A DNA stretch of 60,063 nucleotides, counting the filler. It is 3 parts of 3 records of this genome, joined end to end, with 100 filler letters (N's around TTAATTAATTAA, not from the genome) between each part and the next. Parts side by side here need not be neighbours in the genome. Positions count along the whole stretch, not along the records: positions 1 to 20,550 come from SRR20825019_370; 2 more parts are not named here. One strand, given 5' to 3'. Positions within the stretch are counted from its first letter, which is position 1; every line of letters begins with the position of its first letter. Shown piece by piece: positions 2,355-46,464 of this stretch. Under the pieces are notes generated by a model. That model searched no databases. It saw only the letters and a program-made list of their open reading frames with translations, and had not been told where the DNA came from. Both the position numbers and the translations under genes were made by a program.

Positions 2355-3140
2355 TCGCCCGGTCACGAAAACAGGCACACCACCGCCACGGCGCTCTGGG
2401 GGCGGTCAGTGTCAGTGCCCGGGGGTCTGTCCGGCCACCGTCACGCGCTCAACAGTCTTGAGTGAGGCGCCCACGATTGTCGTGGTGGCATGCCACACTC
2501 ACATTGACAATCCTGAGTTTCTTTGCTCGATCCCATGCGAAGTCACGCTTTACACTTGAATCAAACTTAGCAGAAGTTCGACCGCATACTGGAAACAATC
2601 TTGAATCTTGATATAATGAAGGAACAGGACATCCTTGTCTTGCATAGAGAATTTTGGTGTTTTCCAACGGTTCCACCAGCAGTTCCCGGACTGCCCACTT
2701 GTGCAGCCTTCTGGGCAGGATGATCATGTAGTCGTTGCACTGCGCAAGTGGGAGTGCTCGTCATGGTCGGTGTCACTTGACAAGTCGACACCACCCCGGG
2801 CCGCCCGTCCGTCGTCCCCCCTGGCGCGCCGCGTCGCGCCCGCCGGCCGCGGGGCCGGGGCCCATGGACGCGAGGCCACCAAAGTGCCTGGGCCCGCACG
2901 GGGCCGCCGGCCGGGGCCGGCCCGCTGGCCCCCGGCCGCGCCGCCGGCCCCATCGCGAAATGCAGCGGGGTCACTGCAAGTCCCAGTCGTGACGGCGGCG
3001 CCTGGACGCGTCCCTTGGGGCCGGGGGCCCCGGCGGGGCCCCTGCCACCTCGGCCACGCAGTGGGCCAGCTCAGTGGCCAGGCCCTTGACATTGGCGTGG
3101 ACCGGCTGGGTGAAGCAGGCACAGTGCACCGTCACCCTGG
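2355..3140. promoter_or_regulatory. GC-rich intergenic islands between divergent NOT3 and the unknown gene
   Basis: Extremely G+C- and CCGG-rich tracts (~2355-2490, ~2750-3140) with repeated GTCAGTG/GTCACT motifs, upstream of both start codons. TATATAAA at 3181-3188. Promoter role is inferred. Confidence 0.5.
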
Positions 3141-3312
3141 CAGACGCTTCATCTCTTACGCTGCACGATTGGCAACTCCTTATATAAATCAGAACGCATG
3201 ACTCATGATCACACGCAAAGATTGATCAGCATGTCGATGCTATGGAAGGTATTGTAGCAACCATGATATTAAACAGTTTTTCTAAACTTAGCTGCAGCTT
3301 GACCCACCGGAG

Positions 3313-4399: not shown

Positions 4400-5020
4400 T
4401 CGCGGACGGGTGGATGGGTAGTCACTAGCCGCCATGACCGGTCCGGCCGGCAGGCGGCGGCGGCGGCCTCCGAACCGTCTCGTTTGGGCGTGAGCAGGCC
4501 CGGCCCGGACGATGCTGCCTGAGGCGCGGGCCAGTCTGCTCAGCACAGGAGTTCCCCAATTGGGAAGTCAAAACTTGACATATAAGTTTCGAGGTGGATC
4601 AGCAGGATTGAACGGAAAGCCATCCAAGGCGGGGTTCAGTTGCTGTGCTCCAGCCATCACACACACCGGGTGAGTGCCCGCCGGCTGCGGGCCGCCGCGT
4701 CGCTTGCCGTGGTGGACCGCAAAATTCAACTTTGTTGCTCGCATCGTCGGCGGGTGGCCCGCGAGTCGCGTCACTTGTCCGGGCCGGCAGGGGGTCCGGG
4801 CCGGCCCCGCGGGCTCCGGGCCGGCCCGGTAGCTGGTACAGTCGTCACCGCCGGTCAGGTCGCGAAACCGGCCCATCCGGTGCGAGTGACCGCGCCGGTT
4901 TTGGCCACGGCAGGCCCGGCCGGGACGGACGTCAGTCAGTGACCGGGGCCACAGCCCCCCGAGTGCAAGTACGGCGTGGTTCCCCATGTTCGCGGCGTTT
5001 CGGCGGCGCGTCCGACTGAA
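4400..5020. promoter_or_regulatory. GC-rich intergenic island upstream of the MORN gene
   Basis: GC-rich tracts with GTCACT (4421, 4770), AGTGAC (4885), GTCAGTCAGTGAC (4931); TATAAA at ~5161. Confidence 0.5.
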
Positions 5021-5206
5021 ATTATTCGGGGAGAGCAGAATGCTACTATGGGCGGACTATGTACCACTCATGATGACCGGCCTTTTCGCAGGCACACCAG
5101 GCGCACAGCCCTTCGGGTTGCTGTGGAGCAGATATAGCCAAAGTGCTCGCCGAAGAGCAATATAAACTCTCGTTTAACACCAAGTGGAAAGATTAATTTC
5201 AAAGTT

Positions 5207-8989: not shown

Positions 8990-9620
8990 GGAGGGCACCC
9001 GGGGCGCTGGGCCAGAGGTGTCAGTGAGTGTCGTGCCGGCTGACGGAGATGAGATTGCGCTGTGGCGTCCCTCACTTTCCGCCGGGGTCGTCCGAGTCTC
9101 ACATTGATGAGATGTCGGGCGGGTCGGCTAAGTTTAGAACCACCGCCCGACTGCGGTGACTGTTGACAAATAATCGCAGTCGTGCCGGTTTACGTAAAGG
9201 AAATCTGTGGCCTCTCCTCGAGCGATCTGGGGACCCTGAGATGCGATCTCGTGGCCCTAAACCTCACATCGCGGCCGCCCGGCGGACTGCTGGCCCGGCT
9301 CCGGCGGCCGGGCCCGGCGGGGGGCCGCCGCACTGATGAGGCGGTCAAAACCGGCAGTCCGGCCCGGGGTGCGGGGCCAGGAGGCGGCGGCGGCAGTGCG
9401 GATGCCCGCCGGGGCCCATGCCTCACTGTCTGGCGGGACCGACCGGGCGCGGGCCGGGGGGCGGCCCGGGTCGGCCGCGCCTACGCGGCCAGTGGCCCGC
9501 GCGGCGCTCACGCCCTCCCATTCGGTAACGCCTGGCTTAGCGAGCAGCACGATGAGAGAAGAATGCCGGAGTGGAAATGCGGCGGCGCCCCGCAGGCCGG
9601 CAGGCGTGAGCTTGCCCTCC
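8990..9620. promoter_or_regulatory. GC-rich intergenic island (divergent SLC35F6 / RCC1-repeat genes)
   Basis: Very GC-rich 9270-9620; GTCAGTGAGTG (9019), GGTGACTG (~9155), CACTGA (9331), CTCACTG (9422). Confidence 0.5.
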
Positions 9621-13499: not shown

Positions 13500-13930
13500 T
13501 CAGTGCCGACTGCCCCCAACGCCTATTCCATTCAGCATAAGCCAAGGTTCTCCGTTTCGGAGAGAGAGGGGACGCCACGCCCAGCTCGACGGCAACACGA
13601 GTCAGTGCCGCACACTCACGCCTCACAGAATGCAGGTGGCAGGGCCGCGGCCACTATCAGTGTAGGATGGCCCGACCCTGCCGGTTCCGGGTGGGACCGT
13701 GAGAGTCGCCGACCTCGGATGCCGTCCGTCAGCGCGACCCGGCGGCCGGCGGGCGCCCGCGGGTGACGGGCGGCCGGGGGCGTGGCAGGCGGCCCGGGGC
13801 CGACCGGGCCGCGCGGCCCGCGCGGGCGGCGCCGGCCAGCGGAGGCCGGCCGCTTCAGTCCGTTCCAGCTCCTCGACTGAGATTGATGAGAGTACTCACG
13901 ACCGCAGTTTAACACCAGTGCGCAGACCGT
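13500..13930. promoter_or_regulatory. GC-rich intergenic island (divergent ankyrin / kinase genes)
   Basis: GC-rich 13720-13860; TCAGTG at ~13500, ~13602, ~13657. Confidence 0.5.
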
Positions 13931-14636
13931 TGACGTGTTTTTTTGAGTGCTGGTCGGAATCTTGGCTTCCTGTATGTTTCGTTATATTGTGTATCTTCGT
14001 TCTAGAGAGCCAAGTAAACTCCATGACATTGCCAAATTTGGCAATTGTGGAAAGTTAAGGTGGCCATGATGGCGATACGGGCTCGGGGAGAGGAAATTGT
14101 ACTGGGATTCACCATTAAAAGTAATGGTATCTGTCTAGCTGGAACATCCTGGAACTGCGCTACCAAATTGAGTCTTGAGACAAACACCAAAATTGACAAG
14201 AAGGCTCGGTGTTGTGTCATCCAACCAGAATTGGAAGTTCAACTGCCCCAACTCCCCTCTCAAAATTCTCCTGAACAGGCAATCAAGTGGCCCTGTGAAT
14301 AGCCCGGCGCCAAATTTGGGGGACAACACCATCCACAAATCCACATGGTGAGACCGACGAATGGGTATCATTGTTGGGGAAGAGTCGCGTGCGATGGGCA
14401 CTTCCGGCACAAGTTGGACGAGCAGCTGATTTTGGGAGTGCTGTGATCGTAGGCCAAGCGAAATCACCTTGCTTCAACGGTTGTGGTGCGCTGAGTCTGA
14501 TGAGTGTAGGCTACACTCTCACACCTCAGTTTCCACCAAGCTCCACCAGCACAGGCACTTTGCCCAGAAGGTGAGGACACCTATGAGTATGTGTTGCCCA
14601 AAAAGAGATACACAGGTATCTCTTTCACAAGCGAAT

Positions 14637-16492: not shown

Positions 16493-19051
16493 ATGGTTAA
16501 GGGGGCCCTTGTGTCAACAAAAAAGAAAAATTCTATCCTAGTCCTTGAGGAAGAGGTTGTAGACGTTCCTTACTGTGAAGGAATTGTCAGCCCTGAGTTT
16601 GTCGACGAAGAAACACGAACAGTAAGACCATCTTAACTGTTTTTTTGTGTATGACTTAACTCCTGTGCGTAGTGCAAAAGACTTGAGCCGGATCACTTGC
16701 CCCCTCTGGACCCAAAATACTTTTGCATTGGAATAGTATTTAAGCCAGAATCTCAATTTGACGACCATGACCGACAACTGAGAGAGATTATTGAAAGGAA
16801 ACTTCGGGATCAATGGTTCATGGTGGCAGAGAGACGAACCACTGTTGATGAAAGCGCAGCTAGTGAAGAGCAGCGCTATTTACTTATTGGTGTCACAGAG
16901 CAGTGGCTTGAGTTGGCTGCTGAGCGGTTGTATTGGGAGCTACCTTTGCACAGTCCTCCAAGAGGCACTGGTTGTGTGTACAGACCATATGAGATAGCAA
17001 AGAAAGCAAAATTCAAGACATACGACGGCTGTGTTGAAACAGAAGACCCAACTGGGTCTGTGTTTACTCCTGCAACAAGGATTGCTATTGTGTACAGAGT
17101 GATCGAGGATACCTGTAGGTTTGTCTGAACAGGGTGCTTGCTGTGTTGCTTACTGGCTTTTTCGCAGTGAAATATGCATTACACCTTCCTCCCGTCAAAA
17201 AGGTGTTTCCTCTTCACAACAATCGGGAAGTCAAGCAAATCGGAAAGCAAACTGGAAATATTATGTTCTGGCCACTGTTATCTGCAAGACGTAGATGGAC
17301 CTTCCTCGAGTTGATTCGTAGATATTTTGGTGAACGCCGGAGTCTCTACTTCGCTTTCATATGTAAGAACTTTCCTCATTTCCTCGAGATATTTCCTGAC
17401 CCGAATCTAAACAGTATTTTACACTCTTACCCTTGTGCCTATTGGAATCATTGGCGCAGTAGCCTATGTTGTTTTTCGGGATACTAGTCTCCGAGCTTAT
17501 GCGGAGCCCATCTGGGTTACACTATTGATGATGTGGACAGCATCGTGGATTGTCTTTTGGATTCGTCTGCGAAATGATTGGGCATATAGCTGGGGAACAT
17601 TGGGATTCAAAGGAAGAGTGAAAGAGAGGGTTCAGTTTACGGGAAAGAGCGTCTACAACGATATTACTGGGCAGATGGAGAAGGAGTACCCTGAGTGGAA
17701 ACGAGTATTCTTCAGATATTCCATGAGTGTATTTGTAATGTCACTGATGGTTATGTGTGCTGCTCTGATGGTTGTGGGGTGTATAGTCTTTAGGGGGGCA
17801 CGATTGATACCGGGATTTTGGTCTTACAAGGCAGCGGGTTTTCTGATGGGAATTTCTTCGCACTTTGCGAATCATGTTATGGGGAACATAGCCAGAGCGT
17901 TGACAAACTTCGAGAACCATCGGGAGGCACATGCGTGGGAGAACCAGTACATCTTGAAAACCTTCGCCATTTATTCGGTGAATTCTTTCATGTACTTCTA
18001 TTATGTTACATTCCTTCAAGGTCGTCTCAAACCCTATTTCGGAATCGATGTATGGTGGGATACACCATGCCCAGATAATGACTGTGTCCATGTTCTGGAG
18101 CTTCTTGTGTGCTATCATATGTTGGCAAGCATTTTCGTACAGCAGATATTGGAGATTGCAGTGCCGTTTGGGTCGTACTGGCTAAGGGTGAAATGTGCGA
18201 AGAAAGCTGATGATGGGGAAGATGTCAACGCGACCTTTTTGAAATATGCTGACAAGCAGAGGAAGAGAGATCCCCTCAACGTCTTTGATGACTATGCTGA
18301 AATGGTTCTACAATTCGGTCTGGTCTCCTTATTTGGTGCGGCATTTCCTCTTGCGCCACTTTTGGCCCTCTGCAACAATATTACAGGTAACACCCGGTGT
18401 TTTTCATTTGTATCATTGAGCTAACCTCATCAAAGAAATCTTCTTTGACTATTTCAAGTATGTTTTGATCGGTGGAAGACCTATTCCTCAAAAAGCAGAA
18501 GACATTGGCACTTGGCTCCTTTGTATCAAGATAACGGTATGTACAGTAAGCAGCCTTGTAAATCAAAGATTGACCATTTGCTACCACAGGCCTTCTTTTC
18601 TATTCTTACGAATGCTGCATATCTATGCTTCGTTTCGACAACGTCATCAGTTCGAGGCCAGTCATGGACTACAAAGGCGTTCGCATTCTTTGTTCTTGAG
18701 CATATCTTCGTAATCATTCAATACGTGTTACACACAGCAATACCACAAAAGACTCGATCGCTTAGGAATAAGCTGAGAAAAGTTGCGGACTACAATCATC
18801 TTGAAAGTGTCAGAGCACAGAGAGACCGTGATCAACTTTTCAAAGAATTATCGGAGCAACGGGGTAAAGAAATTCGTGAAAGGCAAGAGGACGAGAGAGA
18901 ACGTGCGCGAAGCGCAAGTAAGTTGAGTGATCACTGTGATGAAGACGAGGCAGATGGAAACGAGGATCAACCCCTTCTAAGGGAAAAGAAAACCCTTACT
19001 TTCAATTTCTTTGGAGGACACAATAACAAACCATCGGACATTGAAGGGTGA
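16493..19051 (+). CDS. Anoctamin/TMEM16 family protein (multi-exon)
   Basis: IRRYFGE..LYFAF, LTNFENHR, FDDYAEMVLQFGLVSLFGAAFPLAPLLALCNN, RPIPQKAEDIGTW, FFVLEH are anoctamin signatures. ORFs 16448-19051 joined by short introns. Confidence 0.92.
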
Positions 19052-19581
19052 TTCTGATTGCTTCGATTGCTCAATGATCACCGTCTCTGGTTGTGTACGT
19101 TCAGCGTCGGATGTAATCGTTGGGGCGTCCAAGAATGTCCGCATACGGAAATATACCACAATCCGTCATTCCATGGGCCATACTCAACGAGGTCTGGAAG
19201 GAGGCCAAATATCATCATAGTTACTAGAATTCGCGATGGCTGGCTCATGATGATAGTCCCTTCATTTGGAAATAAATTGTTCAAATTATTTGTAGCAGTA
19301 GTGTCGTTTGACCGGGAATCAGTGGATATTCCGGAAGTGTTAAGACACTGCATGCATTCGAAATTGCACCTTGCATGCTCTTCTTCCGTTTTCCGGCACT
19401 TCAAGCTTACTTATAATACCCAACCCGGCAAAGCATGGCCAATTGTCATGTGAAGATGTGCATGTTGCACGTACATTCTCTACTATTATTGAATTGTATC
19501 AAATTAATATTGGACTGGTGAACGTAAATTTAAGATGAACGATACCGTGGAATTGTCATCCGTTCATCGCAGGCTGAAGGT

Positions 19582-19706
19582 TTTAACAAAAGGATGCGCT
19601 CATGTAACTGGGATGTATTCAAAACTCACGGTACTTACTAACCAATGTGCGGCTGTTGCGGATTCGGAATTATACTATTAACAGCTGAGTACGATTTGGA
19701 ATGCAT
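19582..19706 (+). mobile_element. Possible third, internally deleted TnpB/Fanzor-like relic (copy C)
   Basis: Frame FNKRMRSCNWDVFKTHGTY*PMCGCCG. Ends in GTACGATT(19689-96)..GAATGCAT(19699-706); both 8-mers also occur in the copy A tail. Confidence 0.35.
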
Positions 19707-19744
19707 GCAAATAAATATCGGTTAATGACTAAAGTTGATGTAAT

Positions 19745-20045
19745 ATGCATTCATGATACCAAAAATGATATCAATCGTACGGCAATACCAATACCTCATT
19801 TGCAAGCCTTGAAAGATCAGGTTCATACCAACCAAGCCCTCAACAAGATGTTGAGGTCGCCGTTCACCCTTCTATCGTGTGTGAATAACTTACATGACGG
19901 ACAGATAAACGTTTTGGCCCCTGTCCCCATCGAGCCAATGATTCAATGGGGGTTCAATTCTTCGCAGACGGTCCGCATGTGTGTGAATGTAGTATACGAT
20001 TTATCCCAAAGAATGTCTTCACTGCGTCGGTTCTTGTACTCAATG
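19745..20045 (-). mobile_element. Degenerate TnpB/Fanzor2-like 3' end plus putative omegaRNA/right end (copy A)
   Basis: Minus frame IEYKNRRSEDILWDKSYTTFTHMRTVCEELNPH*IIGSMGTGAKTFICPSCKLFTHDRRVNGDLNILLRAWLV* (stop 19823-25) matches the TnpB/Fanzor zinc ribbon plus RuvC-III. The 3' non-coding tail is homologous to copy B up to AATGCAT. Confidence 0.7.
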
Positions 20046-20206
20046 TAAGTTCGCTCTCGATAGAGACGTGAACGACACCCATAACATTATGTTGCGGGCT
20101 TTGCTGTTATGGACCTGGTTCTCGAAAGAGAAGAGCCGGACTTGCAAAAGGGGTATTGGTAATGGATGTGTTCATGGTGACCGCATTTTGATATCACGCA
20201 ATGCAT
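20032..20206 (+). mobile_element. Degenerate TnpB/Fanzor2-like 3' end plus putative omegaRNA/right end (copy B)
   Basis: Frame SCTQCKFALDRDVNDTHNIMLRALL; TTCTC-GAAA-GAGAA hairpin at 20119-20132; tail homologous to copy A, ending AATGCAT at 20206. Confidence 0.7.
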
Positions 20207-20382
20207 CACCCGGTGTACGGTATCCGCAAAGCGTATCACATCCGGTCCCCCCCCTCCCCGGGCCCCCGGCGCCCTCTGAGCCCTCCTCCGTAGATTCAAG
20301 TATGTAATATGACAATTGCTAGATGAGCTCTAAAGAGTAGACGGTATACAAACACTCCGCTTCCTTCTCTACTTCAAAAACA

Positions 20383-20550
20383 ATGAGCTCGCCCAACCTC
20401 GCGATTATCTTCGAAAAGCCTAGGCTGGGCACGGCTCACAACTCCTTCCGAGTCAGGCTTCCTTCGTTCTTTCCCTGTGGCGACCAAGAAGCACCAATAC
20501 TGCACAGGGAGCAGTGCAACGCAAGCTTGCCCCTCCTGAGCACTCCACGA
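20383..20550 (+). CDS. Possible 5' fragment of a eukaryotic gene, truncated by contig end
   Basis: AAAACA-ATG context downstream of a small GC island (20240-20290); open to the gap; no recognisable domain. Confidence 0.3.
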
Positions 20551-20650
20551 NNNNNNNNNNNNNNNNNNNNNNNNNNNNNNNNNNNNNNNNNNNNTTAATT
20601 AATTAANNNNNNNNNNNNNNNNNNNNNNNNNNNNNNNNNNNNNNNNNNNN
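20551..20650. other. Artificial contig-joining spacer
   Basis: N run containing TTAATTAATTAA (stops in all six frames); eukaryotic sequence on the left, bacterial on the right. Confidence 0.97.
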
Positions 20651-46364: not shown

Positions 46365-46464
46365 NNNNNNNNNNNNNNNNNNNNNNNNNNNNNNNNNNNN
46401 NNNNNNNNTTAATTAATTAANNNNNNNNNNNNNNNNNNNNNNNNNNNNNNNNNNNNNNNNNNNN
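46365..46464. other. Artificial contig-joining spacer
   Basis: N run containing TTAATTAATTAA at 46409-46420; G+C rises sharply after it. Confidence 0.97.

Follow-up and report, generated by a model that had tools for sequence, protein, structure and literature searches.

The described systems closest to the locus analyzed in this work are the Fanzor elements of eukaryotes and the TnpB-encoding elements of prokaryotes. For CRe-1 of Chlamydomonas, 5'-truncated copies of Fanzor1 with 3' ends in excess were described, and the truncated Fanzor1 copies of this alga are Helitron-borne (Bao & Jurka 2013, PMC3627910). In the known TnpB systems, the guide begins at the first base past the right end of the element (Yoon et al. 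2023, PMC10711439).

The object of this study was a window of 60,063 nt (the whole stretch of DNA that was analyzed), and within it a 462-bp segment (19745-20206), which had been presented in a preliminary description as two TnpB/Fanzor2-like relics, each keeping a conserved omegaRNA-like tail. We found that this segment consists of two diverged copies of a single sequence, which lie in inverted orientation within a 1.3-kb intergenic region. In our opinion (with a probability of about 0.75) it represents dead transposon debris, i.e., two old, 5'-truncated right (3') ends of a TnpB/Fanzor-type element lying head-to-head, and the two copies most likely do nothing at present.

When compared with the Fanzor elements, as described for CRe-1 (PMC3627910), the relics share with them the eukaryotic host, the presence of a C-terminal zinc ribbon, here only partly preserved, and of a RuvC-III motif, and the retention of the 3' end combined with the loss of the 5' part; they are also decayed, as in many Fanzor families. 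Unlike those elements, the relics have no known full-length member, and they pair two 3' ends head-to-head, an arrangement which does not appear in the available part of the CRe-1 description. In both the profile and the pairwise comparisons, the relics are most similar to the TnpB proteins of the prokaryotic IS200/IS605 and IS607 elements (PF07282, NF040570, NF038281, and ISDra2 TnpB), and they share with the TnpB genes, whose right end bears the omegaRNA/reRNA, the order of a coding end followed by a conserved stretch which runs to a sharp end. On the other hand, they differ from the latter in that only 25-60 residues are left, all scores are below the cut-offs, neither a match to an Rfam family nor a common RNA fold was found, and the location is a eukaryotic chromosome.

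Composition of the Window and Characteristics of the Host Contig

The window is composed of three contigs, artificially concatenated via two N44-TTAATTAATTAA-N44 linkers (20551-20650 and 46365-46464). Contig 1 (1-20550, GC content of 0.50) is eukaryotic and bears the relic pair. Contig 2 (20651-46364) shows 100% identity to one of the prokaryote genomes (G001), and contig 3 (46465-60063, GC content of 0.55) is densely packed with prokaryote-type ORFs and is absent from that genome. Since contigs 2 and 3 are prokaryotic or prokaryote-like, the assembly carries bacterial companions or contaminants.

The eukaryotic character of contig 1, postulated previously, was borne out by its genes for a Not3 protein, an anoctamin, and a transporter. 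The first of these encodes a Not3-type subunit of CCR4-NOT (PF04065 and PF04153 were found on its homologues), whose best relative (48% identity) comes from a pelagophyte, followed by those of plants, a haptophyte, and an oomycete. The nearest clusters of the EamA/SLC35-like transporter are exclusively eukaryotic. The anoctamin-family gene (17411-19051, plus strand; PF04547, E-value of 2e-62) contains short GT..AG introns and terminates with a TGA codon at 19049-19051, i.e., about 700 nt upstream of the relics. By-eye reading of contig 1 indicated also MORN-repeat, RCC1-like, ankyrin, and kinase ORFs. The host is a protist of a poorly sampled lineage.

Several other features of this contig are worth mentioning. 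The anoctamin intron at 18387-18449 is approximately 63-72 nt long, starts with GT, contains a CTAAC-like branch site, and ends with AG, and beyond it the conserved RPxPxxAxxIGxW stretch resumes in a different frame. On the other side of the relics, an ORF with an ATG start (MSSPNLAIIFEKPRLG..; 20384-20550) begins 178 nt past the end of the plus-strand copy and reaches the end of the contig, and it may represent the host gene that follows. Moreover, contig 1 contains sharp-edged GC-rich islands (2801-3200, 4401-5200, 9201-9600, and 13601-14000; GC content of 0.63-0.75 versus approximately 0.47 in their surroundings), which are localized between large ORFs, and a short GC-rich island is also present at about 20240-20290, just after the plus-strand relic. 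The islands may constitute promoter regions, and the ORFs found on their opposite strand look like composition artefacts.

Geometry and Boundaries of the Inverted Pair

The repeat search revealed two pairs of inverted arms, i.e., 19818-19885/20050-20117 (68 nt, 74% identity, 50/68) and 19783-19806/20141-20164 (24 nt, 88% identity, 21/24). In the blastn comparison of the reverse-complemented minus copy with the whole window (+1/-1 scoring), the 68-nt arm was recovered with an E-value of 3.5e-9 and the colinear 24-nt block with an E-value of 0.015. This block, conserved within the tails of both copies (19783-19806 on the minus strand and 20141-20164 on the plus strand), was also used as a degenerate pattern, which has two sites in the window, both within the relics, and gave no matches in 100 shuffles. 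Alignments of the two copies demonstrated that they share the terminus TTTTGRTATCAYG(C)AATGCAT and that no similarity is detectable beyond 19745 and 20206. The 21/24 tail block and the abrupt ends noticed earlier were thus reproduced, and the continuation of the shared sequence past the protein motif to a common end is what is expected of the right end of a transposon. Overall, the arms are approximately 79% identical (21% diverged), with three indels, and the core between them, approximately 130 nt in length, is unique.

The longer relic occupies positions 19745-20005 on the minus strand, while the shorter one is localized at 20032-20206 on the plus strand. The alignments and hhalign delimited a junction zone (20006-20050) with the truncated 5' sides of both copies; the breakpoint cannot be placed within it, because the same 12-15 nt give 'IEYK' when assigned to the minus copy and 'CTQCK' when assigned to the plus copy, and hhalign would extend the homology of the minus copy to about 20053 (including the said 'IEYK'). 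As regards the orientation, the copies had been called back-to-back; they do form an inverted pair, but the arrangement is in fact head-to-head, with the truncated 5' sides meeting at about 20005-20050 and the tails facing outward. No target-site duplication was found around the 462-bp unit, which is flanked by ..GTAAT and CACCC.. sequences.

The two tails differ in their details. In the minus tail (19745-19830), approximately 13 nt are duplicated in tandem (..TTGATATCAT.. / ..TTGGTATCAT..), and this duplication produces an 8-bp terminal hairpin. The plus tail (20105-20206) is devoid of this duplication and carries 12-nt and 16-nt insertions elsewhere.

Searches with the 24-nt pattern and with nhmmer did not indicate any further copy of the tail or of the unit in the window. 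Within the viral contigs, the tail pattern had no matches, and the protein patterns pointed to 14 stretches, none of which was confirmed. A single match of the tail pattern was obtained for the metagenome contigs (L001), with the similarity confined to the 24-nt block and approximately 30 nt, and another single one for the prokaryote genomes, upstream of a ribosomal protein gene. Both were rejected as true relatives, as one match per collection corresponds to the chance level. In L001, the 24-nt block matches exactly (1705-1728) about 670 nt upstream of an ORF (1-1032) for a pogo/Tc5-like DDE transposase, and a poly-T end is present. The preliminary description had proposed both a search with TnpB/Fanzor profiles and a search for other copies with the AATGCAT boundary; profile matches do exist, at scores below the cut-offs, but no further copy with this boundary was found in the collections searched, i.e., none in the window and in the viral contigs, and only the above-mentioned chance-level matches in the metagenome and prokaryote sets.

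According to the preferred reading, the right end of the ancestral active element would have contained the coding sequence for the C-terminal zinc ribbon and the RuvC-III motif of the nuclease and, by analogy with the characterised TnpB/Fanzor elements, it may also have carried the 3' part of a guide-RNA scaffold, running to the element end. The head-to-head arrangement could reflect two insertions at one site, each of them truncated, or abortive products of gap repair there; it could also be a foldback/MITE-like derivative of a single element end. That one relic was simply duplicated in place, in inverted orientation, was judged less likely, since the same element-end motif terminates both arms.

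DNA transposons have miniature derivatives of foldback or palindromic structure (MITEs), to which the palindrome-associated elements correspond in the case of IS200/IS605. Similarly to such derivatives, the locus is a short non-coding unit with inverted arms composed of element-end sequence, and one may consider that the whole 462-bp segment is a single mobile element of this kind, both arms of which come from the right end of the parent and which was inserted as a unit. The same terminal motif at the outer boundaries of the arms, their inverted orientation, and the unique core of the above-mentioned size are in agreement with this idea, and terminal inverted repeats (TIRs) occur in some Fanzor-bearing elements, e.g., SPu-1, with a 33-bp TIR and a TA duplication (PMC3627910), and TIR-bearing Fanzor2 elements (PMC10711439). 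We nevertheless regard it as unlikely, given the lack of a target-site duplication, the 21% divergence and three indels between the arms, and the lack of a second copy in the collections listed above.

Reading Frames and Their Decay

The translations quoted in the preliminary description were confirmed, with ..EDILWDKSYTTFTHMRTVCEELNPH(TGA)IIGSMGTGAKTFICPSCKLFTHDRRVNGDLNILLRAWLV(TGA) in the minus frame and ..CVGSCTQCKFALDRDVNDTHNIMLRALLLWTWF.. in the plus frame; the latter stays open to position 20307, i.e., through the whole tail. Each copy can be read as the C-terminal 25-60 residues of a nuclease of the TnpB type, comprising the second CxxC of the zinc ribbon and the RuvC-III motif. The order of elements in the minus copy is as follows: the YT(T) motif, the eroded first half of the zinc ribbon, the intact second CxxC, DRRVNGDLNI, and a tail of about 80 nt. 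In the plus copy, which retains approximately 25 recognizable residues, CTQC (the second CxxC) is followed by DRDVNDTHNI, LRA, and a tail of about 95 nt. Regarding the zinc ribbon, which in the superfamily has four cysteines (two CxxC pairs) and is preceded by a YTS motif, the minus copy has SYTT and CPSC, with the first pair reduced to one Cys, and the plus copy retains CTQC alone. The RuvC-III motif (D-R-D-x-N-x-x-x-N-I, near the C-terminus) is complete in the plus copy, while in the minus copy the second Asp of DRD, presumably the catalytic one, is replaced; the motifs of both copies align to the final positions of the profile.

The front of the gene, which in a complete ORF of about 350-700 aa bears the RuvC-I Asp, the RuvC-II Glu, and the wedge/REC parts, is missing in both copies. 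Among the 40 ORFs of at least 25 aa distinguished in the region 19058-20550, there were no remnants of RuvC-I, RuvC-II, the REC/wedge domains, or a transposase, and no IS607-type recombinase or other part of an element. The minus copy additionally contains an in-frame TGA codon at 19943-19945. The arms differ at 21 of the 75 aligned coding positions (nine, seven, and five differences at the first, second, and third codon position, respectively), with dN/dS of 0.54. Purifying selection between the arms is not supported by this value, which was calculated for 25 codons and is accompanied by no excess of third-position differences. The decay is evident from the in-frame TGA, the DRD-to-DRR change of the minus copy, the absence of the upstream RuvC and transposase parts, and the dN/dS value, and neither copy is able to make a nuclease.

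The stop codon of the minus copy (TGA) is aligned to TGG in the plus copy, in which the frame is open through the tail, and therefore part of the tail may originally have been coding. Within the minus relic and its tail (19753-19945), each of the five in-frame stops is a TGA codon, and opposite two of these the plus copy has TGG (Trp). The chance of such an all-TGA set is about 0.04-0.05, as TGA constitutes 51-56% of the stop triplets here. Reading of TGA as a sense codon was rejected, since this triplet is so frequent among the stops and what looked like read-through of a TGA within the anoctamin gene turned out to be a GT..AG intron. TGG-to-TGA transitions are the simple explanation of the TGA codons in the minus relic.

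Probable Assignment of the Relics to the TnpB Superfamily

For both copies, the best Pfam match was PF07282 (Cas12f1-like TNB), aligned up to its last positions. The 65-aa read-through of the minus copy scored 19.6 bits (E-value of 0.001; residues 6-58 aligned to positions 23-60 of the 60-position profile), and the plus copy scored 15.1 bits (E-value of 0.027; residues 11-29 aligned to positions 42-60), with the cut-off at 26.3. A search with a zinc-ribbon profile had been recommended in the preliminary description, and thus both frames do match it, but below the curated cut-off. Among the 40 local ORFs mentioned above, PF07282 was the sole family matched by two members. Within NCBIfam, TnpB models alone were matched, at their C-terminal ends (341-389/389 and 337-359/360), i.e., NF040570 (14.6 bits, E-value of 0.015, cut-off of 100) and NF038281 (E-values of 0.15 and 0.048, 12.8 bits, cut-off of 425), so that no curated cut-off was reached by either copy. 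In each case (PF07282 and NCBIfam), the match lies at the C-terminal end of the profile and adjoins the stop codon.

A tblastn search of 7.3 Gb of plasmid sequences, in which each match was individually insignificant (E-values of 1-9), resulted in 13 records for the minus copy: four TnpB, four 'transposase', one AraC, two hypothetical, and two unannotated ones (one without a feature under the match and one lacking any annotation). The 19 records obtained for the plus copy comprised eight TnpB, four 'transposase', and seven without a listed feature; no other genes were hit. For all seven plasmid loci that were inspected, the match was localized close to the terminus of a gene for a protein of about 350-410 aa, with 3-147 nt remaining after it. 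A separate HMM was constructed from the C-termini of 12 TnpB genes, which were picked by PF07282 in 61 prokaryote genomes, and not by the query. When it was used to scan all 2162 stop-to-stop ORFs of at least 15 aa present in the window, the relic ORFs ranked first and second (E-values of 0.0049 and 0.0081), and the third one had an E-value of 0.29. Comparison by hhalign with the C-termini of seven plasmid TnpBs gave probabilities of 96.9%, 96.1%, and 91.2%, which are inflated, because these templates were chosen from among our own tblastn matches. The two-copy profile compared with solved structures indicated, at the top of the ranking, TnpB-type chains, namely a designed TnpB-like nuclease (E-value of 0.007), Cas12m (0.033), and ISDra2 TnpB (8exa/8h1j; 0.048).

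Some results point in the opposite direction. In the last comparison, the chains of TnpB, Cas12m, and TranC (E-values of 0.007-0.4) were mixed with zinc fingers of the glucocorticoid receptor (0.04-0.26), and neither mimivirus L79 nor the Guillardia Fanzor1 was found at an E-value ≤ 10; both are present in the same structure library and were recovered by the TnpB C-terminal profile. Application of phmmer to the 65-aa read-through and 1.84 billion representative proteins gave two matches at an E-value ≤ 0.001, both with unrelated repeat proteins, and the word-based protein search with the two-copy alignment yielded 70 candidates for 'longer', none of them at an E-value ≤ 10, and no candidates for 'near'. 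The matches of the two relics are not independent, because the copies are homologous to each other, and the interpretation of the locus as a transposon end is drawn from these two copies only.

Since every profile score is under the curated cut-offs, and C2H2 and nuclear-receptor zinc fingers score alike in the comparison with solved structures, it may be argued that the relics contain a zinc-finger-like motif which appeared by chance inside an unrelated inverted repeat, with no derivation from TnpB. This is quite improbable in the light of the first two ranks among 2162 ORFs in the HMM scan, the strong enrichment of TnpB genes among the tblastn matches, and the position of the matches at the extreme C-terminal end of every profile, beside the stop codon. 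The concordance of the profile, tblastn, and HMM tests, each of them weak, thus upholds the C-terminal TnpB-superfamily origin proposed before, and, judging from sequence comparisons, both fragments are very probably derived from this superfamily. Because the contig is eukaryotic, 'Fanzor-type' is a fair and natural label for the relics, with 25-60 residues being too few to decide between the Fanzor1 and Fanzor2 types.

The best pairwise similarities were those to bacterial and haloarchaeal TnpBs, which, together with the occurrence of bacterial contigs in the same assembly, would fit a remnant of a prokaryotic TnpB introduced through assembly chimerism or recent transfer. However, the pairwise searches covered prokaryotic collections only, and thus their best matches are uninformative on the origin, and the identities amount to just 37-60% over 20-54 residues. 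The prokaryote genome identical to contig 2 has no match to the region 19500-20550, and the neighbours of the relics are, on the left, the anoctamin gene with its spliceosomal introns, and, on the right, a short stretch rich in GC followed by the ATG-started ORF from 20384. A prokaryotic source of this kind is therefore highly improbable, and we maintain the interpretation of the locus as old debris of a Fanzor-type element.

The Tails as Putative Guide RNAs

The position of the tails fits that of the TnpB guide RNAs, if the analogy with the known systems holds. No matches to Rfam (E-value ≤ 10) were found in the region 19000-20550, the fold z-scores were -1.75, 0.04, -0.20, and -0.31, with energies no better than those of shuffles, and the minimum-energy folds of the two tails differ from each other. 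In the consensus fold, the 24-nt block pairs with the conserved terminus, with 13 of the 13 pairs kept and one compensatory change, and the resulting helix encloses the indel-rich middle. In the pairing test, for which the structure came from the very two sequences examined, the observed values were reached by 236 of the 500 shuffles, so the consensus fold, as based on two sequences only, carries no weight. Hence, of the 'omegaRNA-like tail' of the preliminary description, the position and the conserved blocks stand, but the folds are unremarkable.

The same description went further and spoke of non-autonomous 'ghost' copies; as functional units, these would have tails serving as guide-RNA scaffolds, with the flanking host DNA providing the guide and an intact Fanzor acting in trans. 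The conservation of the tails (21/24 and about 18/21) is no lower than that of the coding part (50/68), their conserved blocks can pair in both copies, and TnpB guides start directly after the right end (PMC10711439). The difference between the tail and coding identities is, however, small at these lengths, the fold energies, the differing individual folds, the pairing test, and the Rfam search presented above all speak against this reading, and no intact partner gene is known. Functional units of this type thus found no support and appear to us very improbable. Another, still bolder possibility is that an unsampled, divergent Fanzor lineage exists, and that the 462-bp segment is its palindromic, non-autonomous right-end/right-end unit, the tails of which are still transcribed as guide scaffolds that extend into the host DNA at either side and serve intact relatives in trans; we would treat it as a long shot.

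Significance of the Relic Pair

The relic pair looks like ordinary dead transposon debris, and not like a working RNA-guided system. The locus itself is most likely non-functional and leaves the understanding of the TnpB/Fanzor systems unchanged. If the proposed interpretation is true, one more eukaryotic lineage would join the past hosts of TnpB/Fanzor transposons. As the search of 1.84 billion representative proteins gave no close relative of the relic, intact family members encoded by the source genome could provide divergent, compact RNA-guided nucleases. The value of the locus is that it points to a Fanzor family, possibly a divergent one, in a protist that is under-sampled.
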